A stretch of 64,000 bases of DNA from contig CAVZYU010000005.1 in NCBI GenBank assembly GCA_963779625.1, forward strand, positions 564,373-628,372. The letters are read 5' to 3'. Origin of the DNA: an uncultured Actinomycetes bacterium. GTDB lineage: Bacteria > Actinomycetota > Thermoleophilia > Solirubrobacterales > Solirubrobacteraceae. Positions 42,631 to 52,066 of the stretch are shown piece after piece; the first letter of the stretch is position 1; every line of letters starts with the position of its first letter. The notes beneath the pieces were generated by a model that was not told the origin of the DNA, ran no database searches, and worked only from the letters and a program-made list of their open reading frames with translations. The position numbers and the translations under genes are program-made.

Positions 42631-44228
42631 CGCTCGCGCTGATCACCGAGTCGCATGACACGAACACGACGGCGCTCGTCGTCTTCATCGCGCTGTTCGC
42701 GCTCGTCACGATGCTCGGCTTCGTGGCGTCGCGCTGGCGGCGCGCGAAGCTCGACCACCTCGACGAGTGGGGCCTCGGAGGCCGGCGCTTCGGCACGCTC
42801 GTCACGTGGTTCCTCCTCGGCGGCGACCTCTACACCGCCTACACGTTCATCGCCGTCCCGGCGCTCGTGTTCGGCGCCGGCGCGATCGGCTTCTTCGCGC
42901 TGCCCTACACGATCATGGTCTATCCGCTGGTCTTCGTCGTGATGCCGCGGTTGTGGACGGTCTGCCGCGCGCACGGGTACGTGACGCCGGCGGACTTCGT
43001 GCGCGGGCGCTACGGCTCGCGCCCGCTCGGGCTCATGGTCGCCTGCACCGGGATCCTCGCGACGATGCCCTACATCGCCCTGCAGCTCGTGGGGATGCAG
43101 ATCGTGCTGGGCGCGATGGGGATCGAGGGCGACTGGCCGCTGATCATCGCCTTCGTGATCCTCGCCGCCTACACGTACCAGTCGGGCCTGCGGGCGCCCG
43201 CGCTCATCGCCGTCGTCAAGGATGCGCTGATCTACATCGTCATCCTCGTGGCGGTCATCTACATCCCGTCGAAGATCGGCGGGTTCGGGGCGATGTTCGA
43301 CGCGGCCGAGAAGGCATTGCCCACGCGCGACAAGCCCGGCGCGCTGATCCCGCTCGGCGCCGATGCGCAGATCGCCTATGCGACGCTCGCGTTCGGCTCG
43401 GCGCTCGCGCTGTTCCTGTACCCGCACGCGATCACCGCCGTCCTGAGCGCCAAGAGCGCCCAGACCGTGCGGCGCAACACCGCGCTGCTACCCGCCTACA
43501 CCTTCCTGCTCGGGCTCATCGCGCTGCTCGGCTACATGGCGATCGCGCGCGAGATCAGCCCCAGCAACCCGAACTTCGCGGTGCCCGACCTGTTCCTCAA
43601 CGTCTTCCCGTCGTGGTTCGTCGGCGTGGCGTTCGCGGCGATCGCGATCGGCGCGCTCGTGCCGGCGGCGGTCATGTCGATCGCCGCGGCGAACCTCTTC
43701 ACGCGCAGCATCTACAAGGCCTACATCCGTCCCGGCGCGTCACACTCCGACGAGGCGCGGACGGCGAAGATCGTCTCGCTGCTCGTGAAGATCGGGGCGC
43801 TGATCATCATCGTGACCCTGCCGACGAAGTACGCGATCGAGCTGCAGCTGCTCGGCGGCGTGTGGATCCTGCAGACGCTGCCGTCGATCGTCGTCGGCCT
43901 CTACACGCGCTGGCTGCACCGCTGGGCGCTCGTCGCCGGCTGGGCCGTCGGGATGGTCGTCGGGACGCTCATGGCGCAGTCCCAGGACTTCGCACCGACC
44001 TATCCGCTGGAGATCTTCGGCACGAAGATCAACGCCTACACCGGGGTCTTCGCGCTGACCGCGAACCTCGTCGTGACGCTCGCCGGCACGGCGATCCTGC
44101 GCGCCACGGGCACCGACGACCCCGGCGACGAGACGCGCGACCACGACTTCGACGAGCTCGCCGAGGACGCCGTCTATCCCGAGCCCGGCGCGACGGCGCG
44201 CCCGGCCGAGCCCGCGCCCGCGGCCTAG
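42627..44228 (+). CDS. Solute:sodium symporter family transporter
   Basis: 533 aa, about 13 TM helices. N-terminal WGLGGRRFGTLVTWFLLGGDLYTAYTF motif. Paired with DUF3311. Confidence 0.85.
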   Translation: MTLALITESHDTNTTALVVFIALFALVTMLGFVASRWRRAKLDHLDEWGLGGRRFGTLVTWFLLGGDLYTAYTFIAVPALVFGAGAIGFFALPYTIMVYPLVFVVMPRLWTVCRAHGYVTPADFVRGRYGSRPLGLMVACTGILATMPYIALQLVGMQIVLGAMGIEGDWPLIIAFVILAAYTYQSGLRAPALIAVVKDALIYIVILVAVIYIPSKIGGFGAMFDAAEKALPTRDKPGALIPLGADAQIAYATLAFGSALALFLYPHAITAVLSAKSAQTVRRNTALLPAYTFLLGLIALLGYMAIAREISPSNPNFAVPDLFLNVFPSWFVGVAFAAIAIGALVPAAVMSIAAANLFTRSIYKAYIRPGASHSDEARTAKIVSLLVKIGALIIIVTLPTKYAIELQLLGGVWILQTLPSIVVGLYTRWLHRWALVAGWAVGMVVGTLMAQSQDFAPTYPLEIFGTKINAYTGVFALTANLVVTLAGTAILRATGTDDPGDETRDHDFDELAEDAVYPEPGATARPAEPAPAA

Positions 44229-44233
44229 CCACG

Positions 44234-44983
44234 CTAGAGCGCGAGCGCGATCGCGACCACGACGCCGTACGCGATCACGACGCCGCGCAGCACCGCCGCG
44301 GGGAGCCTGCGCGCGACGCGGACGCCGGCGGCCCCGCCGACGAGGCTCGCAGCGCCCACGACGAGCGCCGCGTCCCACGCGATCGGGCCGAAGATCGCGA
44401 ACACGACCGCCGCGACGAGGGCGATCACGAGCGACAGCACGCCCTTGAGTGCGTTGAGGCGCTGCAGGTCGTCGGGCAGCAGGATTCCGAGCAGCGCGAG
44501 CAGCATGATCCCGAGGCCCGCGCCGAAGTATCCGCCGTACACGGCGGCGAGGAAGAGCCCGCCGTGAAGGGCGATCGGCGTCGACCCGCGCCGCCCGCGC
44601 TTTCGCTGCGCGATCGCGGCCGCGCGCGGCTGCAGCGCCAGCAGCGCACAGGCGGCGAGGATGAGCCAGGGTACGACCGCGTCGAACAGCGAGGCCGGGC
44701 TCAGCAGCAGCAGCGCCGCGCCCGCGGCGGTGCCGGCGACGCTCGTCGGCGCGAGCGCGCGGATGCGCGCGCGCTGGCCGGACAGCTCGGGGCGGTAGGC
44801 CAGCGAGCCACCGACGTAGCCGGGCAGGACGGCGACGGAGTTCGTCACGTTCGCCGTGACGCTCGGGTAGCCGGCCGCCAGGAGCGCCGGGAAGGAGATG
44901 AGCGAGCCGCCGCCCGCGACCGCGTTGACGCCACCGGCACCGAAGCCCGCGCCGGCGAGCAGGACGATCGTGCCGGCGTCCAT
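44234..44983 (-). CDS. TauE/SafE family anion exporter
   Basis: 249 aa, with GAGGVNAVAGGGSLISFPALL and GGYFGAGLGIMLLALLG repeats. These are the last 249 codons of track ORF 44234..45502. Confidence 0.8.
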   Translation of the reverse strand: MDAGTIVLLAGAGFGAGGVNAVAGGGSLISFPALLAAGYPSVTANVTNSVAVLPGYVGGSLAYRPELSGQRARIRALAPTSVAGTAAGAALLLLSPASLFDAVVPWLILAACALLALQPRAAAIAQRKRGRRGSTPIALHGGLFLAAVYGGYFGAGLGIMLLALLGILLPDDLQRLNALKGVLSLVIALVAAVVFAIFGPIAWDAALVVGAASLVGGAAGVRVARRLPAAVLRGVVIAYGVVVAIALAL

Positions 44984-45019
44984 CGCGCCGAGGCTAGTGG
45001 ATGCGCCATCCTTCTCGAC

Positions 45020-45511
45020 ATGGAATCCGGCGCCGGCACCGCGACTCCGACGTACCGCGGCGTCCTGCACGCCTCGCGGACGCTCGTGTGGTTCACGGCC
45101 GCGCTCTCGCTGTTCGCGGGCTACATCCACGTCGCCTACGTCGATTCGCACCTGCAGGAATGGTGGGGGTACGGCGCGTTCTTCATCGCCGCGGCGAACC
45201 TGCAGGTGCTGTTCGCGGCGGTGCTCGTCCGCTGGCCGCGCTCGTGGTTGCCGTATGCGGGCATCGCGGGCAACCTCGTCATCATCGGGATGTATGTCAT
45301 CACCCGCACCTCGGGCATCCCGCTGGGCCCGCACGCGCGCGTGGTCGAGGAGGCCGGCGCGACCGACTGGCTCACGACGGCCGCCCAGGTCGGGATCGTC
45401 ATCGCGCTGCTGGCCATGCTCGAGGGGCGCCCGCGGCGCTGGATCATCAACGGACTGCTGCTGCTCGGCGTGCTGGCGTGGGTGCTGAGGCTCTCGGGCC
45501 ACCTGCAGTAG
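45020..45511 (+). CDS. Hypothetical 4-TM membrane protein (163 aa)
   Basis: The terminal 164 codons of track ORF 42767..45511 begin at ATG and contain four clear hydrophobic helices. Confidence 0.55.
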   Translation: MESGAGTATPTYRGVLHASRTLVWFTAALSLFAGYIHVAYVDSHLQEWWGYGAFFIAAANLQVLFAAVLVRWPRSWLPYAGIAGNLVIIGMYVITRTSGIPLGPHARVVEEAGATDWLTTAAQVGIVIALLAMLEGRPRRWIINGLLLLGVLAWVLRLSGHLQ

Positions 45512-46047
45512 CGCAGGCGGCGGCCGAGCCCGAGGCCGACGGCGCGCGCCGGCGCCGCCGCCGGCCGCGGCGCTGGTGGCCGTTGGGCCTCGTCGTCGTG
45601 CTCGCGCTCGTGGCCGTCCGGGTCTTCCTCCTCGAGCCGTTCAGGACCGACGGCGTGAGCATGGTCCCGACGCTGCGCTCCGGCGACCAGGTCCTCGTCG
45701 ACAAGCGCGCCTACCGCGATGCGCTGCCGCGCCGTCGCGACCTCGTCGTCTTCCACGCGCCCGACGGCGCCGTGACGCTCAAGCGCGCGATCGGCCTGCC
45801 CGGCGACACGGTGTCGATCGAGGACGGCGTGCTCATCGTCAACGGCCGGCGCCAGGTCGAGCCCTATGCCAACCCCGACGCGATCGACAGCGTCTACTTC
45901 GGACCCGTGCGGGTGCGCCCCGGCGCCGTCTTCTTCCTCGGCGACAACCGCTTGGACTCGCGCGATTCACGCGATTTCGGTGCGGTGGCGCGGCGCGCGC
46001 TCATCGGGCGGGTCCGCGGCCTGATCTGGCCGCCGTCGCGCTGGTAG
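45478..46047 (+). CDS. lepB: Signal peptidase I
   Basis: GVSMVPTL (catalytic Ser), KRAIGLPGD (Lys box), GDNRLDSRDSR. Start uncertain: GTG at 45478 overlaps the upstream gene, and a TTG inside the TM is the alternative. Confidence 0.8.
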   Translation: MGAEALGPPAVAQAAAEPEADGARRRRRRPRRWWPLGLVVVLALVAVRVFLLEPFRTDGVSMVPTLRSGDQVLVDKRAYRDALPRRRDLVVFHAPDGAVTLKRAIGLPGDTVSIEDGVLIVNGRRQVEPYANPDAIDSVYFGPVRVRPGAVFFLGDNRLDSRDSRDFGAVARRALIGRVRGLIWPPSRW

Positions 46048-46120
46048 TACATCCGTCCATGAGACATGCGGGTTCGCGCACCGTGGGCCGCTGGTTCTGC
46101 GCTGTCGGCGCGATCGCCGG

Positions 46121-48202
46121 TTGAGGATGCTGGTGGTTGTGTCCAGATCCCGTCTCACGCTGGACCGCCGCGACCTCCTCAAGCTCGGCGTCTTCAGCAG
46201 CGCGGCGCTCGCCCTGCCCGCCGAGCGCCTCGCGCGCACGCAGGCCGCGCTCGCCAACAGGATGCCGGAGAGCGCGCTGCCGCAGCCGTTCACGATCCCG
46301 TTCACGACGCCGCCGGTGCTCGCGCCCGAGCGTCAGACGCAGAACTTCGACTACTACACGATCACCCAGCGCCAGGCCTCCGTCGAGATCCTGCCCGGCA
46401 AGCGGACCGACATCTGGGGCTACAACGGCATCACGCCCGGTCCGACGATCATGAACACGCAGGGCCGCCATGCGGTGGTCCAGCACGTCAACGACCTTCC
46501 CGCCGTACACCCGACGCTGCGCTACAACGTCTGGACCTCCACGCACCTGCACGGCTCCCCGTCCAAGCCGCAGTACGACGGCTACGCGAGCGACATCACG
46601 GACGTCGACAGCTGGAAGGACTACGTCTATCCCAACTCGGAGGACGCGCGGACGCTCTGGTACCACGACCACGGCGTCCATATCACCGCGGCGAACGCCT
46701 ACATGGGCCTGGCCGCGCTCTACATCCTGCACGACCCGCAGGAGCTGAGCCTGCCGATCCCGCACGGCGCCTACGACGTGCCGTTCGTCCTGCGCGACGC
46801 GATGTTCGAGGCCAACGGCCGGCTGCTCTTCGACGACAACAGCGAATCCGGTGTCTACGGCGACGTCATCCTCGTCAACGGCGTTCCGTGGCCGAGGATG
46901 CCGGTCGAGCGGCGCAAGTACCGCTTCCGGATCCTCAACGCGTCGCTCTCGCGCTCCTACGGGCTGCAGCTCGACAGCGGCGAGCCGCTGATCGTCATCG
47001 GCACGGACAGCGGGCTGACGGCGCAACCGCAGCCGGTCGCGAACCTGAAGTCCGGGATGGCCGAGCGCTACGAGGTCGTCATCGACTTCTCGAAGTACAA
47101 GATCGGCCAGCGGGTGGTGATGCAGAACGTCTCGCCGCCGAACAACATCGACTTCGCGACCACGGGCGTGGTCATGGCCTTCGACGTCGTCGCCGATGCG
47201 AGCGACCCGACGAACAACGAGGTCCCCTCGGTCCTCAACCCGGATTCGAAAACGATGGCGCTCACCGAGGCCGACTCCATGCGCACGCGCGAGTTCGAGT
47301 TCGCCCGCGGTGGCGGCCAGTGGACGATCAACGGCACCACCTGGGACGACGTCGTCAACAGCGACTACCAGTTCGTGCTCGCCAACCCGGGCCTCAACGA
47401 CGTCGAGATCTGGGAGTTCAAGAACAACTCCAACGGCTGGTTTCACCCGGTCCACGCACACCTCGTGGACTTCAAGGTGCTCGACCGCAACGGTCGGCCC
47501 CCGTTCGACTACGAGAAGGGCCCCAAGGACACCGTCTACGTCGGCGAGGGCGAGACCGTGCGCGTGCTCATAAAGTTCGAGCACGAGGAGGGGCGGTACA
47601 TGATCCATTGCCACAACCTCGTGCACGAGGACCACGACATGATGGCGCAGTTCCGCGTGGGCAGGGACTCGGCGGGCCAGGATCCGATCCATGCCGACGG
47701 CGCCGCGCGCAAGCCGGCACGGCCGGTGCGCAACCGCCACGACGATCCCGACGAGGACGGCGGCGGCGGGCGCGGCGATGGCGGTGGCGGTGGCGGCAAC
47801 GACGGCGGCGCCAGCGCCAGCGGCAGCAGCTCGAGCGGCTCCAGTGGCGCCGGCGGCGGTGGCTCGAACTCCGGCAGCGGGACCGTCAAGGCCTCCAGTA
47901 CGCCCAAGTGCGCGCCTGCCAAGAAGCAGACGGCGGCCCAGAAGAAGGCCGCGCTCAAGAAGCGCGTGCTCGCCAAGCAGAGGCTCGCCAAGCAGAAGGC
48001 GCGCGCCAAGCAGAAGGCGCTCGCCAAGCGCAATTCCAAGCTCCGCGCCGTGAAGAAGAAGCCCGCGGCGAAGTGCGTGACGCCGGCCAAGGGCAAGCCC
48101 GCGGCGAAGCGCACGCCGGCCCGCAAGCCCAAGCGCGCGCCGGCCCGCAAGCCCAAGCGCGCGCCGGCCAAGAAGAGCGCCGCCCGCCGCCCCGCGCGCT
48201 GA
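46121..48202 (+). CDS. Tat-signal three-domain multicopper oxidase (CotA/bilirubin-oxidase-like) with Gly/Ser linker and polycationic Lys/Arg/Ala/Pro C-terminal tail
   Basis: Twin-arginine motif DRRDLLKLG. Copper motifs THLHG, WYHDH, HPVHAHL and HCHNLVHEDHDMM. Residues from about 545 are a G/S linker followed by an acid-free tail of about 104 aa (41 Lys/Arg by my count). Confidence 0.9.
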   Translation: MRMLVVVSRSRLTLDRRDLLKLGVFSSAALALPAERLARTQAALANRMPESALPQPFTIPFTTPPVLAPERQTQNFDYYTITQRQASVEILPGKRTDIWGYNGITPGPTIMNTQGRHAVVQHVNDLPAVHPTLRYNVWTSTHLHGSPSKPQYDGYASDITDVDSWKDYVYPNSEDARTLWYHDHGVHITAANAYMGLAALYILHDPQELSLPIPHGAYDVPFVLRDAMFEANGRLLFDDNSESGVYGDVILVNGVPWPRMPVERRKYRFRILNASLSRSYGLQLDSGEPLIVIGTDSGLTAQPQPVANLKSGMAERYEVVIDFSKYKIGQRVVMQNVSPPNNIDFATTGVVMAFDVVADASDPTNNEVPSVLNPDSKTMALTEADSMRTREFEFARGGGQWTINGTTWDDVVNSDYQFVLANPGLNDVEIWEFKNNSNGWFHPVHAHLVDFKVLDRNGRPPFDYEKGPKDTVYVGEGETVRVLIKFEHEEGRYMIHCHNLVHEDHDMMAQFRVGRDSAGQDPIHADGAARKPARPVRNRHDDPDEDGGGGRGDGGGGGGNDGGASASGSSSSGSSGAGGGGSNSGSGTVKASSTPKCAPAKKQTAAQKKAALKKRVLAKQRLAKQKARAKQKALAKRNSKLRAVKKKPAAKCVTPAKGKPAAKRTPARKPKRAPARKPKRAPAKKSAARRPAR

Positions 48203-48449
48203 GCGCGCCCGCACGCCGGCAAGAAGAAGAGCCCGGCCCGGCGCCCTGAGCGCGCACCGGCACGCCCATGGTCGCGGCCTGCGTCTGCTGTCCGCTTGCG
48301 TGGAGACGCACGAAGCGCGATCTCGCTGGTTTGCGGGTAGCGCGGGCGCTTCCGGCATCGGTCAGGGGTCCGGGTCGGTCGCCGCGGTCGTTGTGGACCC
48401 GACTGCGGGTGCGGGCGGCGCGACGACATCGACCCCCTTGTTCTTGCGT

Positions 48450-48490
48450 GTGCTAGCGGCTGCTAGCTGGGGGCTATCAGCCGCTAGCAC
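48450..48490. repeat. Perfect 13-bp inverted repeat GTGCTAGCGGCTG-N15-CAGCCGCTAGCAC with a nested TAGC..GCTA palindrome
   Basis: Read directly from the sequence, in the 563-bp spacer between the two oxidase genes. Followed by direct repeats GTTCACG at 48492 and 48510. Confidence 0.8.
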
Positions 48491-48690
48491 GGTTCACGAG
48501 AGCTGGGTCGTTCACGGTCCCGGCAACTGCCCGCGAGCTCGGCGCCTCACGGCTGCGGGACGCGCTCGCGCCCGTGACCGCTCGCAGGACACGCGGGACC
48601 GCAAGCGCGGGGTCACGGCGTATCCACGCACGTGGACAGCAGGCCCGCGTGACGCCGGTCACACAGGCACTCGTAACACCCGCACCCCCG

Positions 48691-48708
48691 CTTGCAGGAC
48701 CCTGCAAG
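48691..48708. promoter_or_regulatory. 18-bp palindrome CTTGCAGG-ac-CCTGCAAG upstream of the second oxidase gene
   Basis: Perfect 8-bp arms, 58 nt before the ATG at 48766. Embedded in a larger GTAAC..CCCCC / GGGGG..GTTAC hairpin (48673..48725). Confidence 0.5.
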
Positions 48709-48765
48709 GAGATTGGGGGGGTTACACCCTGTTTCGGACCGGTGGTCGGATCGATAGTGCCGGGT

Positions 48766-50856
48766 ATGGAAAAGGTCGGACGCAACATGAACCGCCGCGA
48801 GCTCGTGAAGCTCGGACTCTTCAGCAGCGCCGCGCTGGCGCTCCCCGTGGAGCGCGTGGCCCGCACGCAGGTCGCGCTGAGCAACCGGATCGCCACGAGC
48901 GCGCTGCCGCAGCCGTTCACGATCCCGTTCACGACGCCGCCGGTGCTCGTGCCCGATCACCAGACGCAGACGCACGACTACTACAAGCTCGCCCAGAAGC
49001 AGGCGCCGGCCGAGATCCTGCCGGGCAAGCAGACGGACATCTGGGGCTACAACGGCATCACGCCGGGCCCGACGATCATGAACACGCAGGGCCGCTCGGC
49101 CGTCGTTCAGCAGGTCAACGAGCTGCCCGCGGTGCACCCGACCATGCGCTACAACGTCTGGTCCTCCACGCACCTGCACGGGTCCTGCTCCAAGCCGCAG
49201 TACGACGGCTACGCCAGCGACATCACCGATGTCGACTGCTGGAAGGACTACGTCTACCCGAACATCCAGGACGCACGAACGCTCTGGTACCACGACCATG
49301 GCGTCCACATCACCGCCCCCAACGCCTACATGGGCCTGGCGGCGATGTACATCCTGCACGACCCGCACGAGCTGAGCCTGCCGATCCCGCACGGCAAGTA
49401 CGACGTGCCGCTCGTCATCCGCGACGCGATGTTCGAGGACAACGGCCAGCTGTTGTTCGACGACAACGGGCACTCCGGCGCATACGGCGACGTCATCCTC
49501 GTCAACGGCGTGCCGTGGCCGAAGATGCAGGTCGAGCGGCGCAAGTACCGCTTCCGCTTCCTCAACGCCTCGATCTCGCGCTCCTACGACTACAGCCTCG
49601 ACAGCGGCGAGCCGCTCATCGTGATCGGCACGGACGGCGGGCTCATGCCCCACCCGCAGCCGGTCTCGCACCTCAAGCACGGCATGGCCGAGCGCTACGA
49701 GGTCGTCATCGACTTCTCGAAGTACCAGATCGGCGAGCGCGTCGTGCTGCAGAACACCTCGCCGCCGAACAACATCGACTACGACACGACCGGCGTGGTC
49801 ATGGCCTTCGACGTCGTCTCCGAGCCCACGGACACGACGAACAACGAGGTTCCCTACGACCTCAACCCCAACATGAAGGTCATGGGGCTCACCGAAGCCG
49901 ACTCGATGCGCACCCGCCACTTCGACTTCGAGCGCAAGAACGGCGGCTGGACGATCAACGGCACGACCTGGGACGACGTCGTCAACAGCGACTACCAGAT
50001 GGTGCTCGCGAACCCCGGCTTCGAGGACACCGAGATCTGGGAGCTCCAGAACTCATCAGGCGGCTGGTTTCATCCGGTCCACATCCACCTCGTGGACTTC
50101 AAGGTGCTCGACCGCAACGGCCGGCCCCCGTTCGACTACGAGAAGGGCCCCAAGGACGTCGTGTACGTCGGCGAGGGCGAGACCGTGCGGGTCATCATGA
50201 AGTTCGAGAATCAGCAGGGCCGCTACATGATGCACTGCCACAACCTCGTGCACGAGGATCACGACATGATGTGCCAATTCCTCGTGGGCGAGGATTCGCC
50301 GAGCTGCGATCCGATCCACGCCGACGGCGCCGACAAGCGCCCCGAGCGCCCGCTGCGCAACCGCCACGACGGTCCGGACGAGAACGAGGGCGGCGGCAAC
50401 TCCGGCTCCGGCTCCGGCTCCGGCTCGGGTTCGGGCTCCGGCGACAACTCGGGCTCGGGCTCGGGCTCGGGCTCTGGCTCTGGCTCTGGCGGCAGCGACA
50501 ACAGCGGCCCCGGCAACGCCGGCGACCTCGCCACCGCCAGCAGCATCAGCGTCGCGCCGGTCGCGGGCGCCTCGGCGTCGAGCATCGCGAAGAAGTGCGC
50601 GCCGGCGAAGAAGAAGCCCGTCCTGAAGCAGACGGCCAAGCAGAAGGCCGCGCTGAAGCGCAAGCAGGCCGCCGCCAGGAAGTCGACGACGAAGACGCGT
50701 GCGGCCGCCACGGCGAAGGCCAAGGCCACGACGACCGCCAAGAAGCCGGCCACGACCTGCGCGACGCCTGTGAAGAAGAAGGCCGTCGCCAAGCGCAAGC
50801 CGGTCATCGCCTCGCGCAAGCGCAAGCTCACCGCCAAGAAGACGATCGGCCGCTAG
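48766..50856 (+). CDS. Tat-signal multicopper oxidase paralog with (Gly-Ser)n linker and polycationic C-terminal tail
   Basis: NRRELVKLG. Copper motifs THLHG, WYHDH, HPVHIHL and HCHNLVHEDHDMM. Linker GSGSGSGSGSGSGDNSGSGSGSGSGSGSGG. Tail KKCAPAKKKPVLKQTAKQKAALKRK...TTCATPVKKKAVAKRKP. Alternative ATG at 48787. Confidence 0.9.
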   Translation: MEKVGRNMNRRELVKLGLFSSAALALPVERVARTQVALSNRIATSALPQPFTIPFTTPPVLVPDHQTQTHDYYKLAQKQAPAEILPGKQTDIWGYNGITPGPTIMNTQGRSAVVQQVNELPAVHPTMRYNVWSSTHLHGSCSKPQYDGYASDITDVDCWKDYVYPNIQDARTLWYHDHGVHITAPNAYMGLAAMYILHDPHELSLPIPHGKYDVPLVIRDAMFEDNGQLLFDDNGHSGAYGDVILVNGVPWPKMQVERRKYRFRFLNASISRSYDYSLDSGEPLIVIGTDGGLMPHPQPVSHLKHGMAERYEVVIDFSKYQIGERVVLQNTSPPNNIDYDTTGVVMAFDVVSEPTDTTNNEVPYDLNPNMKVMGLTEADSMRTRHFDFERKNGGWTINGTTWDDVVNSDYQMVLANPGFEDTEIWELQNSSGGWFHPVHIHLVDFKVLDRNGRPPFDYEKGPKDVVYVGEGETVRVIMKFENQQGRYMMHCHNLVHEDHDMMCQFLVGEDSPSCDPIHADGADKRPERPLRNRHDGPDENEGGGNSGSGSGSGSGSGSGDNSGSGSGSGSGSGSGGSDNSGPGNAGDLATASSISVAPVAGASASSIAKKCAPAKKKPVLKQTAKQKAALKRKQAAARKSTTKTRAAATAKAKATTTAKKPATTCATPVKKKAVAKRKPVIASRKRKLTAKKTIGR
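50401..50490 (+). repeat. Hexanucleotide (TCSGGC / TCTGGC) microsatellite encoding (Ser-Gly)n
   Basis: tccggc x4, tcgggt, tcgggc, tccggc, gacaac, tcgggc x4, tctggc x3, read directly from the sequence. Confidence 0.85.
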
Positions 50857-51371
50857 CCGTCCGACGGGTCCGGCGCGCACGCGCGCGCCGGCACCCCGCC
50901 GACGCTCGCGCCCGCCGCGACGTCGCGCGTGACGACGGCGTGCGGGCCAACCGTCGCCTGCGCGCCGACGCTGACGCCGCGCAGCACGCTCGCGGAGAGG
51001 CCGATGCGCGCGCCGTCGCCGATCGTCACCGGGTCGGCCGCGAGCGCCTGCGCCCGGATCGGACGCTCGACATCGTCGAAGACGTGGTCGAAGTCGACGA
51101 TCACGGTGCCCTCCTCCAGCTGCGCGCCCGCGCCGATCGTGACGCCGGCGTGCGCCACGACGGTGCAGCGCGGGCCGACCACCGCGCCCGCGCCGACCTC
51201 GACACGGCCGTGATTGACGACGATTCGCGTGGCCTCCCCGATCCGGCAGCCGTCCCCGAGTGCCAGGAGCGCCCCGGGCGCCAGGGAGAACTCGACGTCG
51301 CGGCCGAGCGTCACGTCGCGGCCCACCTGGACGCCGGGGAGGCGGGCCGACCGCCGGGCGCGCAGGCGCAT
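50853..51371 (-). CDS. Left-handed beta-helix (hexapeptide-repeat) acyl/acetyltransferase
   Basis: Imperfect hexapeptide repeats (IGEATRIVVNHGRVEVGAGAVVGPRCTVVAHAGVTIGAGAQL ... IGDGARIGLSASVLRGVSVGAQATVG). The start lies 2 nt after the upstream SGNH gene stop. Confidence 0.8.
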   Translation of the reverse strand: MRLRARRSARLPGVQVGRDVTLGRDVEFSLAPGALLALGDGCRIGEATRIVVNHGRVEVGAGAVVGPRCTVVAHAGVTIGAGAQLEEGTVIVDFDHVFDDVERPIRAQALAADPVTIGDGARIGLSASVLRGVSVGAQATVGPHAVVTRDVAAGASVGGVPARACAPDPSDG

Positions 51372-51373
51372 CG

Positions 51374-52066
51374 TCAACGGCCCAGCGCGCGCTCGCGGGC
51401 GCGACGCAGGAGATCGCGCGCGAGCATGCGCGCATGGGCGGGCGCGTAGCGGGCCGTCCGCAGCCCGTCGGGCGCCGCGAGAGTCGACGGCAGCTGCGTC
51501 GCGCCGAGCGCCCGCGCGACGCGGTCGGCGATGTCGAGCTGGCCGAGGGCCGTCGGGTGCACGACGTCGGGCAGCACGAGCATCCATCCGCCGAAATCCG
51601 TGAGGTTGACGACGACGGCGCTGTGGCGGCGCGCGACGCGGCTCACCGCGGCGTTGGCCTGCGCGGGCTTGGGCGCGCACGTCGGGCGGCCGAGGTCGAG
51701 CGGCAGGGTGAGCATGACCAGCCGCTCGGCACGGGCGGCGAGGCCGGCGGCGATCGCGTCGAGGTCGCGCTCATAGGCGGGTGCGTCCCAGTCGCCCGAG
51801 CGGACGTCGTTGACGCCGACGTAGAGCGCCGCGAGGTCGTAGTCGTTGCGCACGCGCGGGAGCTGGTCGCGCAGGACGTCGGCGGCGGTGGCGCCGTTGC
51901 AGGCATAGGAGTGAAACGGCAGGTCCAGGGCCCGCGCGAGCCACTGCGCCCAGGACAGCGCGGTGACGCCGAGCGCCATCGTCCCCTCGCCCAGGGTGAT
52001 GCTGTCGCCGAGCGCGAGCAGGCCCTTCCGGCACGGTGCGGCCGCAGGGCTCAGCCCGGCTTGCAC
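51374..52066 (-). CDS. SGNH/GDSL hydrolase family protein
   Basis: Block I LALGDSIT, block III VGVNDV, block V VVHPT. Confidence 0.8.
   Translation of the reverse strand: MQAGLSPAAAPCRKGLLALGDSITLGEGTMALGVTALSWAQWLARALDLPFHSYACNGATAADVLRDQLPRVRNDYDLAALYVGVNDVRSGDWDAPAYERDLDAIAAGLAARAERLVMLTLPLDLGRPTCAPKPAQANAAVSRVARRHSAVVVNLTDFGGWMLVLPDVVHPTALGQLDIADRVARALGATQLPSTLAAPDGLRTARYAPAHARMLARDLLRRARERALGR

Follow-up and report, generated by a model that had tools for sequence, protein, structure and literature searches.

What does a copper oxidase gain from a long and strongly basic C-terminal tail, and could such a tail hold the enzyme in place outside the cell? The question is raised by two adjacent genes, here called MCO1 and MCO2, in a stretch of 64,000 nucleotides (the window) from an uncultured soil actinomycete of the family Solirubrobacteraceae (GenBank assembly GCA_963779625.1, contig CAVZYU010000005.1, forward-strand positions 564,373 to 628,372). 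A sequence-only reading of the window had described the genes as adjacent paralogues that encode complete multicopper oxidases, each fused to a Gly/Ser linker and a polycationic tail. The paralogous pair is confirmed, the two products being 79% identical over 533 residues, up to the low-complexity spacer at which the BLAST alignment ends. Our results indicate that the extension is translated and clade-wide and that selection acts mainly on its charge and composition, and we propose that it may serve as an electrostatic anchor. The parts of the two genes that concern the extension are the following.

46121..48202, plus strand: MCO1, three-domain multicopper oxidase of the bilirubin oxidase/CotA type, 693 residues from TTG 46121
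47756..47905, plus strand: MCO1 Gly/Ser/Asp spacer, residues 546-595, slightly acidic and predicted to be disordered (from the sequence and a predicted local distance difference test score, pLDDT, of 33-46)
47906..48199, plus strand: MCO1 polycationic tail, residues 596-693, 40 Lys and Arg, no Asp or Glu
47909-47911 and 48074-48076, plus strand: MCO1 tail cysteines, Cys597 and Cys652
48766..50856, plus strand: MCO2, paralogous oxidase, 696 residues from ATG 48766
50386..50592, plus strand: MCO2 Gly/Ser spacer with (GS)n runs, residues 541-609
50593..50853, plus strand: MCO2 polycationic tail, residues 610-696, 31 Lys and Arg, no Asp or Glu
50596-50598 and 50758-50760, plus strand: MCO2 tail cysteines, Cys611 and Cys665

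The C-terminal extensions are translated and mostly disordered

Counted from the KCAPAKK box, which lies at residue 596 of MCO1 and residue 610 of MCO2, the tails are 98 and 87 residues long with net charges of +40 and +31, or about +0.4 per residue, and they consist mainly of Lys, Arg, Ala, Pro and Thr. The count of 41 Lys and Arg in 104 residues given for MCO1 by the sequence-only reading becomes 40 in 98 when made from this box, and the reported absence of acidic residues holds. The two cysteine boxes that it described are both present, the second (C[VA]TP[AV]K) at residues 652 and 665. Each tail contains exactly two cysteines, separated by 55 residues in MCO1 and 54 in MCO2.

Long spurious open reading frames are common in DNA of 70-75% G+C, and the tail could in principle be an artefact of annotation or sequencing, with the true stop just past the oxidase domain. 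Several observations refute this. The G+C content at third codon positions (GC3) is 0.98 in both tails, compared with 0.88-0.94 in the spacers and 0.95-0.96 in the oxidase domains, and all 51 Lys codons in the tails are AAG. Tandem DNA repeats in the spacer and tail regions have periods of 3, 6, 12, 15, 18, 24, 30, 36 and 51 nt. All those scoring at least 39 have periods that are multiples of 3, and of the 19 rows only one departs from this, a 15-nt match of period 7 at the minimum score. Moreover, the tail reading frame is open in more than 100 homologues from independent assemblies, with indels that preserve the frame. Because of the GC3 values, the exclusive use of AAG, the frame-multiple repeats and the tailed homologues, we conclude that the tails are translated, as had been supposed, and we give almost no credence to an artefact.

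The repeats themselves are in frame. A 24-nt repeat at 48107-48169 (2.6 copies, 97% identical) encodes KRAPARKP, the MCO1 spacer contains in-frame repeats of 3, 6 and 15 nt, and the MCO2 spacer has repeats of 6 and 18 nt at 50400-50490. Overall, in-frame tandem repeats with periods of 6 to 51 nt build the spacer and tail DNA at 47924-48169 and 50400-50756. This organization points to continuing expansion and contraction through slippage or unequal exchange.

We modelled MCO1 with AlphaFold2 in a 689-residue form using 103 aligned sequences (mean pLDDT 81). Confidence is 83-93 in the core up to about residue 540, falls to 33-46 in the spacer (residues 551-600) and is below 50 in the last 50 residues. 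A helix is predicted at residues 602-637 of this form, between the tail cysteines, with pLDDT 65-83, and the MCO1 tail is therefore not wholly featureless. The expected disorder thus applies to the spacer and most of the tail, where pLDDT is below 50, but not to this helix.

No Pfam or NCBIfam model covers the tail. An LP.TG motif was not found, there is no hydrophobic window of 18 residues outside the core in the last 200 residues, and neither a transmembrane anchor nor an internal lipobox was detected when looked for in MCO1 and MCO2. Two other candidate functions were rejected. An amphipathic membrane-binding helix is not supported, since the maximal hydrophobic moment of the tails is no higher than that of shuffled tails. 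A formylglycine site (C-x-P-x-R) is likewise not indicated, as C.P.R occurs in only 3 of 32 tails and the usual contexts are CAPKK, CAPAK and CVTPA.

The tail is specific to one clade and one enzyme

The fusion is not unique to the window. Among the best 120 database homologues, about 95 have a spacer followed by a tail rich in Lys and Arg and poor in acidic residues, and about 20 end 39-48 residues past the HCH of the last copper motif. The source names of these homologues indicate Solirubrobacteraceae, together with one metagenome-assembled genome (MAG) of the Gaiellaceae. A scan of one genome per GTDB species returned 595 Actinomycetota relatives, of which the best 80 were examined. In this set tails occur only in Solirubrobacteraceae-type proteins and in one protein from Rubrobacteraceae, which has a Thr/Pro spacer. 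Tail-less orthologues in the same set come from Streptomyces, Terrabacter, Kribbella, Intrasporangium, Pseudonocardia, Ilumatobacteraceae and Gaiellales, and those of Streptomyces, Terrabacter, Kribbella, Ilumatobacteraceae and Gaiellales end 34-50 residues after HCH. In a rough neighbour-joining tree of the cores, the tailed proteins form one large block in which the two-cysteine type is mostly a nested sub-block. These results show that the Solirubrobacteraceae-type clade gained a bipartite disordered C-terminal extension, composed of a neutral-to-acidic Gly/Ser/Asp spacer of 50-70 residues and a polycationic Lys/Arg/Ala/Pro/Thr tail of 85-100 residues. Its conservation in orthologues shows that it is no local artefact; the clade is large, and we sampled 106 non-redundant tails from it.

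The gene pair is itself conserved. The same tandem pair, with both copies tailed, is found in orthologous loci (L001/L006, L002, L004 and L005), and second copies orthologous to MCO2 are present in L001 and L002. With the second-copy tails of L001 and L002 the MCO2 tail shares 60-65% identity, but only 34% with the MCO1 tail, and therefore the duplication is old and each copy has kept its tail. The pair thus arose by an old tandem duplication, and the gene that was duplicated encodes a three-domain multicopper oxidase of the bilirubin oxidase/CotA class with a Tat-type (twin-arginine translocation) leader.

A word-indexed search of 5.8 billion proteins with a tail profile (A1) gave nothing at E <= 1e-3, its 8000 candidates probably being swamped by unrelated Lys-rich proteins. 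Since the profile, built from 32 tails, recovers true tails locally at 34-67 bits, we ran it exhaustively against 1.84 billion representative proteins. This returned three matches, namely one full-length oxidase and two C-terminal oxidase fragments. We also scanned the window and 81 loci (1.48 Mb) in six frames for Lys-rich, acid-poor segments, which yielded 20 oxidase tails and nine other segments. The nine are short or spurious open reading frames or internal stretches of larger ones, and the internal stretches resemble, by sequence, a ribosomal protein, an RNA polymerase subunit and an AKKAP-repeat protein. A Lys-rich C-terminal tail was found on no other exported protein in the 1.48 Mb. 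The idea that the tail is a general secretion or anchoring module of the lineage is therefore unsupported in both the scan and the profile search.

Some proteins depart from the usual arrangement. A few clade members, among them L021 (11468-11935) and P0044, have, after the spacer and in place of the disordered tail, a basic and probably folded beta-rich domain with weak, below-threshold matches to the Ig-like families Big_3_5 and He_PIG. The different appendage fits the idea that this position hosts targeting modules. P0053 (980 residues, on a 1.5-Mb NCBI contig) is annotated as an oxidase followed by a spacer, a short basic stretch, about 300 Arg/Gly/Pro-rich residues and an S26 peptidase; it is probably a gene-calling read-through or frameshift across the module described below and not a true fusion.

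Charge, composition and paired cysteines are maintained

Orthologous tails are 34-65% identical, whereas their cores are 79-85% identical. Because the tails diverge far more than the cores, and do so through in-frame repeats, we conclude that selection acts mainly on charge and composition together with the two cysteines, the tails evolving by in-frame repeat expansion.

In the 106 non-redundant tails the number of cysteines is none (54 tails) or two (50 tails), with only one tail each having one or three. The conserved cysteine pair proposed earlier is thus present in both tails of the window but in only about half of the family. Where a pair occurs, its members lie 11 to 57 residues apart (median 44), and each stands before a small residue and Pro (CAP.., C[VA]TP). 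In the 32-tail profile the two cysteines are the only invariant positions. The zero-or-two pattern is what would be expected of a disulfide in an exported protein, and hence the pair is most likely joined in a disulfide, which would close a cationic loop of about 55 residues.

An alternative use of these residues would be chemical. Laccase-driven protein cross-linking via Lys- and Cys-type residues is established chemistry, and it is conceivable that quinones or radicals, made by the oxidase from phenolics, are attacked by nucleophilic Lys and Cys side chains of its own tail, as in quinone tanning. The enzyme would thereby be linked covalently to the cell envelope or to matter that is humic or derived from lignin. 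Lys is extremely frequent in the tail, a pair of cysteines is common, and the relatives come mostly from soil metagenomes and MAGs. However, Arg-dominated, Lys-poor tails occur (P0118 and P0073), which fits a role of charge over amine chemistry, and the occurrence of the cysteines in pairs suggests a disulfide and not free thiols. We therefore consider covalent immobilization very unlikely.

The cores also carry a charge signature. The net charge is -21 for the MCO1 core and -27 for the MCO2 core, and averages -22.3 +/- 3.4 for tailed proteins (n=92) compared with -8.7 +/- 5.3 for tail-less proteins (n=48). The nearest tail-less relatives have core charges of -10 to -18, such that tailed cores are about 9 units more acidic than these. 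The C-terminal regions average +24, leaving the whole tailed proteins near neutral at about +2 (n=92).

Such a balance raises the possibility that the tail binds its own acidic core and no foreign polyanion. Within one molecule it might shield the enzyme, inhibit it or help its solubility or export, and between molecules it might give head-to-tail oligomers or a coacervate-like enzyme layer. The near cancellation of charge, the extra acidity of the tailed cores and the succession of an acidic spacer and a basic tail, which amounts to a charge diblock, are all in keeping with self-association. On the other hand, core and tail charges are uncorrelated within the tailed clade (r = -0.15, p = 0.15), AlphaFold places no part of the tail on the core, and a spacer of 50-70 residues is more typical of a projecting tether than of a lid. 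Overall, we regard charge neutralization or self-association as an unlikely explanation of the tail.

The tail as a possible anchor to extracellular polyanions

In line with a suggestion of the sequence-only reading, we propose that electrostatic attraction by the tail anchors the enzyme to polyanions outside the cell, and assign this proposal a probability of roughly 0.5. After export, the tail would bind extracytoplasmic polyanions without a covalent bond, candidates being anionic glycopolymers of the cell wall, extracellular DNA or matrix, and humic or mineral colloids. The flexible spacer would project the very acidic catalytic domain, which would be kept near the cell. Support for an anchor comes from the conserved RR motif, the predicted disorder of spacer and tail, the maintenance of composition over sequence, the clade distribution, the enzyme specificity, the lack of any other anchor signal and a precedent in a streptococcal protease described below. 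A polyanion tether seems the most economical reading of these features, and it is consistent with the acidic cores and with cysteines that number zero or two.

Several points weigh against this proposal. The computations point to no particular binding partner and do not discriminate between the candidate polyanions, and the gene neighbourhood is uninformative on wall polymers or matrix. Export through the Tat pathway is predicted from the motif alone, and the TAT_signal hidden Markov models PF10518 and TIGR01409 gave no match at E <= 0.01. Shared ancestry across the 140 homologues confounds the link between core charge and possession of a tail, and the absent correlation between core and tail charge counts here as well. 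Since half of the tails have no cysteines, tail function does not require the disulfide. Finally, the MCO2-type tail keeps a conserved KKKPVLKQTAKQK motif, which hints at a specific partner or structure and not at charge alone.

Leaders, start sites and the intergenic region

The predicted export signal of MCO1 can be placed by its motif, its conservation and an alignment to the CueO model.

46163..46225, plus strand: MCO1 twin-arginine leader (DRRDLLKLGVFSSAALALPA), RR motif and short hydrophobic region

The twin-arginine motif that the sequence-only reading had reported, RR[DE]L[LV]KLG, is indeed located at residue 16 of MCO1 and residue 10 of MCO2, where the leader reads NRRELVKLGLFSSAALALPV. 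Residues R12 and R13 are kept in at least 90% of 103 homologues, the NCBIfam model of CueO aligns from its position 2 at MCO1 residue 15, and AlphaFold2 predicts a helix at residues 12-41 of MCO1. Alternative start codons exist for both genes. MCO1 could begin at ATG 46127 or at GTG 46133, where a database homologue begins, and one of these is likely to be the true start. A longer, GTG-initiated version of the MCO2 reading frame opens at 48574; ATG 48787, giving MNRRELVKLG, seems the more likely start because an orthologue reads MDRRELMKLG.

The spacer between MCO1 and MCO2 (48203-48786) is about 585 nt long, compared with about 150-160 nt in orthologous loci, and contains one feature.

48450..48490, no strand assigned: hairpin with 18-nt arms and a 5-nt loop (GTGCTAGCGGCTGCTAGC / GCTATCAGCCGCTAGCAC), between MCO1 and MCO2

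The exact arms are found nowhere else in the window, and the hairpin may be a terminator or operator. An Rfam scan of 44000-52000 gave two sub-threshold chance matches and none for the hairpin, and a promoter scan did not find sigma-70-like promoters. Terminator-like matches on the minus strand, within tail-coding DNA, were dismissed as composition artefacts.

The catalytic core resembles bilirubin oxidase and CotA

The catalytic cores are delimited as follows.

46286..47755, plus strand: MCO1 catalytic core, residues 56-545, including the conserved post-core segment DPIHAD..KPARPVRNRHDDPDED (PDB alignment, pLDDT)
48931-50385, plus strand: MCO2 catalytic core

Both proteins match PF07732 (41-48 bits), PF00394 (32-33 bits) and PF07731 (78 bits), all exceeding the Pfam cut-offs of 20-21 bits for Cu-oxidase_3, Cu-oxidase and Cu-oxidase_2. 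The three domains and four copper motifs claimed for each protein are therefore present. The motifs are THLHG at residues 141 (MCO1) and 135 (MCO2), WYHDH at 180 and 174, HPVH.HL at 442 and 436, and HCHNLVHEDHDMM at 496 and 490. The corresponding ligand patterns (HxH, HxH, HxxHxH and HCHxxxHxxxxM) are invariant in 103 homologues.

In phmmer searches the best PDB match of MCO1 is the bilirubin oxidase of Myrothecium (E 3e-104), compared with E 7e-67 for CotA, and PDB alignment spans MCO1 residues 56-512. A Foldseek comparison of the MCO1 model with bilirubin oxidase and CotA gave E 1.7e-53 and target-normalized TM-scores of 0.80-0.83 (0.81 for bilirubin oxidase). Both methods rank bilirubin oxidase first and Bacillus CotA second, with CueO and FtsP far behind. 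The CotA-type assignment made from the sequence is thus right in that the proteins are CotA-like, but bilirubin oxidase is nearer. The likeness extends to detail. Myrothecium verrucaria bilirubin oxidase (2XLL, 6IQZ) and Bacillus subtilis CotA (1GSK) likewise have three cupredoxin domains and four copper motifs, and the axial Met (HCHNLVHEDHDM) is common to both and to MCO1 and MCO2. Bilirubin oxidase and MCO1 are about 40% identical across about 515 aligned residues. The motif GW.HP.H.H, which in bilirubin oxidase holds Trp396 (mutated in PDB 6I3K and 6I3L) two residues before the T1 ligand His398, is GWFHPVHAH in MCO1 and GWFHPVHIH in MCO2, and is found in 101 of 103 family members. By these comparisons the catalytic domain is nearest to fungal bilirubin oxidase and then to CotA, and appears to be an ordinary member of a known enzyme class. 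Public annotations of the homologues are generic, including 'spore coat protein A', 'FtsP/CotA-like multicopper oxidase' and 'hypothetical protein'.

Other assignments were tried and rejected. The CueO cuprous oxidase model (NCBIfam NF008205) scores 222 bits against a cut-off of 525, and the Met-rich insert is missing, with at most 3-5 Met per window of 45 residues in MCO1 and MCO2. The NCBIfam scores for FtsP are 147-150 against a cut-off of 581. LPR1-type bacterial ferroxidases are described by three consensus motifs around an Fe2+-binding acidic triad (PMC9168544); neither protein has any of the three, and the equivalent of D462 is Trp.

The two cores differ in their cysteines. MCO2 has one pair at residues 141 and 158 (nt 49186-49188 and 49237-49239, in HLHGSCSKPQ and DVDCWKD) and another at residues 503 and 514 (nt 50272-50274 and 50305-50307, in MMCQF and SPSCDP). 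In MCO1 these positions are occupied by Ser, Ala or Gln, and the family consensus has Cys at least at the first of the four (GSCS). This suggests that the pairs could be disulfides that were lost from MCO1.

A three-gene module that predates the tail

Two genes upstream of MCO1 belong to a recurrent module with the oxidase.

45020..45511, plus strand: membrane protein of 163 residues (tblastn linkage to the oxidase family across Actinomycetota)
45478..46047, plus strand: signal peptidase I (S26), probable GTG start, overlapping the end of the membrane-protein gene (PF10502 1.7e-38, TIGR02227 1.6e-36)

The membrane protein matched no Pfam or NCBIfam family. Its invariant residues are H37, H44, W48, W49, H105, E110, D116 and R139, and AlphaFold2 predicts a confident four-helix bundle (pLDDT 87.5) for which no PDB match was found at E <= 0.001. 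It is possible that it acts as a copper-delivery or docking partner. The order in the window is membrane protein, peptidase, oxidase, oxidase, and the usual order elsewhere in Actinomycetota (L008-L081) is oxidase followed directly downstream by membrane protein and peptidase. Where at least 1.8 kb of sequence downstream of the oxidase gene was available (84 genes), tblastn detected the membrane protein in at least 51 cases, the peptidase in at least 56 and both in at least 42. These counts are lower bounds because the membrane protein diverges fast. The peptidase and membrane protein are equally linked to tail-less orthologues, and the module is older than the tail and independent of it. In a Solirubrobacteraceae MAG (L008, 8551-12984) two complete oxidase/membrane-protein/peptidase modules stand in tandem; the first oxidase is tail-less, with 42 residues after HCH, and the second has a 155-residue extension with a polycationic tail. 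A full-text literature search, which missed most subscription journals, turned up no account of the oxidase-peptidase module.

The adjoining signal peptidase I gene invites a different view of the extension, in which spacer and tail form a removable propeptide that keeps the enzyme inactive or export-competent and is cut off after export, perhaps by the S26 peptidase or by another protease. Ascomycete laccases undergo C-terminal processing. The spacer-tail junction bears a short conserved motif, ASS[VI], or ISVP..VLGS in other subclades, as a processing site might, and the C-terminal extension of the Verrucomicrobium tyrosinase appears to offer a parallel (PMC10526336). Against this, the equal linkage to tail-less orthologues means that neither peptidase nor membrane protein evolved for the tail. 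Signal peptidase I cuts after a membrane-embedded hydrophobic region, and there is none before the junction. Nor would a discarded piece be expected to hold a paired-cysteine rule and a charge of about +25 over such divergence. We consider a propeptide decidedly improbable.

Beyond the module, the flanking genes encode a DUF3311 protein, an SSF symporter, TauE, a hexapeptide transferase, a GDSL hydrolase and a methyltransferase and include glycogen genes, in an order that is kept in close relatives.

Tail and module can be joined in a broader and more tentative picture, which we think possible though doubtful as a whole. Here the clade would have evolved an enzyme-specific, often disulfide-looped polycationic module that turns the oxidase into a charge-diblock exoenzyme, either decorating an anionic scaffold or self-assembling into an immobilized extracellular oxidative layer. 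The oxidase family would act across Actinomycetota in an uncharacterized three-gene unit, with the His-bearing four-helix membrane protein as a possible copper-delivery or docking partner and with a dedicated signal peptidase I.

Significance and comparison with known systems

The Solirubrobacterales are numerous in soil and difficult to grow in culture. Turnover of lignin, humus and pollutants is among the processes in which laccase-like oxidases of soil Actinomycetota have been implicated. The means by which such exoenzymes are held close to the cell or on particles determines the places in soil where oxidation happens. If the broader picture above is correct, the tail would be a previously undescribed way for soil bacteria to localize a laccase-type enzyme, and a conserved, enzyme-specific polycationic tether would be a simple and genetically portable localization device. 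It might then be reused as an immobilization tag, for example to hold bilirubin-oxidase-type biocathode enzymes on anionic supports. The more than 100 natural tail variants, with a common composition and no common sequence, provide together with the charge-balanced architecture (acidic core, basic tail, zero or two cysteines) a clean case of selection on a disordered region. The module, for its part, points to an unstudied maturation or docking pathway beside an oxidase family that is widespread in Actinomycetota, Streptomyces included.

Among related enzymes, bilirubin oxidase and CotA have neither a C-terminal spacer nor a polycationic tail, unlike MCO1 and MCO2. Bilirubin oxidase is a secreted fungal enzyme, and the cores of MCO1 and MCO2 are much more acidic. 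CotA has no signal peptide and is built into the spore coat, whereas MCO1 and MCO2 have a twin-arginine leader. The Tat-exported CueO and FtsP/SufI of Escherichia coli share the position of the leader and the fold, but neither is tailed.

The tails of HupB/Hlp, HBHA and histone H1 have AKKA- or PAKK-like repeats, are free of acidic residues and are expected to have affinity for polyanions. The likeness to these proteins drawn in the sequence-only reading holds for composition and not for homology; none was found in Pfam or NCBIfam, and the exhaustive profile search returned oxidases only. HupB and H1 are intracellular DNA-binding proteins, and none of HupB, HBHA and H1 is fused to an exported enzyme or has paired cysteines. 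Closer in setting are the long disordered C-terminal regions (dCTRs) of lytic polysaccharide monooxygenases, secreted copper enzymes, which are enriched in Actinobacteria and which the authors speculate attach the enzyme to substrate or wall (PMC8615602). These dCTRs are described as weak, near-neutral polyampholytes, whereas the oxidase tails are strong polycations. A term search of a 2018 review of surface display in Gram-positive bacteria found no polycationic disordered tail as an anchor class. The sequence-only reading knew of no described oxidase with this architecture, and our full-text literature search, which lay outside most subscription journals, likewise turned up no polycationic or Lys-rich tail on a multicopper oxidase.

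The closest analogue with experimental support that we found is ScpH of Streptococcus sanguinis, a secreted protease whose Lys-rich C-terminal tail tethers it to extracellular DNA and replaces the LPXTG anchor of its family (bioRxiv 10.64898/2026.05.25.726231). It is a secreted enzyme of a Gram-positive bacterium, as is predicted for MCO1 and MCO2, and like them it has a basic, low-confidence C-terminal tail at a position where relatives have a different anchor or no anchor. ScpH belongs to an unrelated, subtilisin-like enzyme class, shows no sequence similarity to the oxidases and has neither a Gly/Ser spacer nor a cysteine pair; a further difference is that its tail cooperates with a folded FIVAR domain in forming an ordered filament. 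Binding to a polyanion has been demonstrated by experiment for ScpH and is a prediction for the tails of MCO1 and MCO2. Overall, the comparison places the oxidase itself in a known class, whereas the appended module and its regularities appear to be new.

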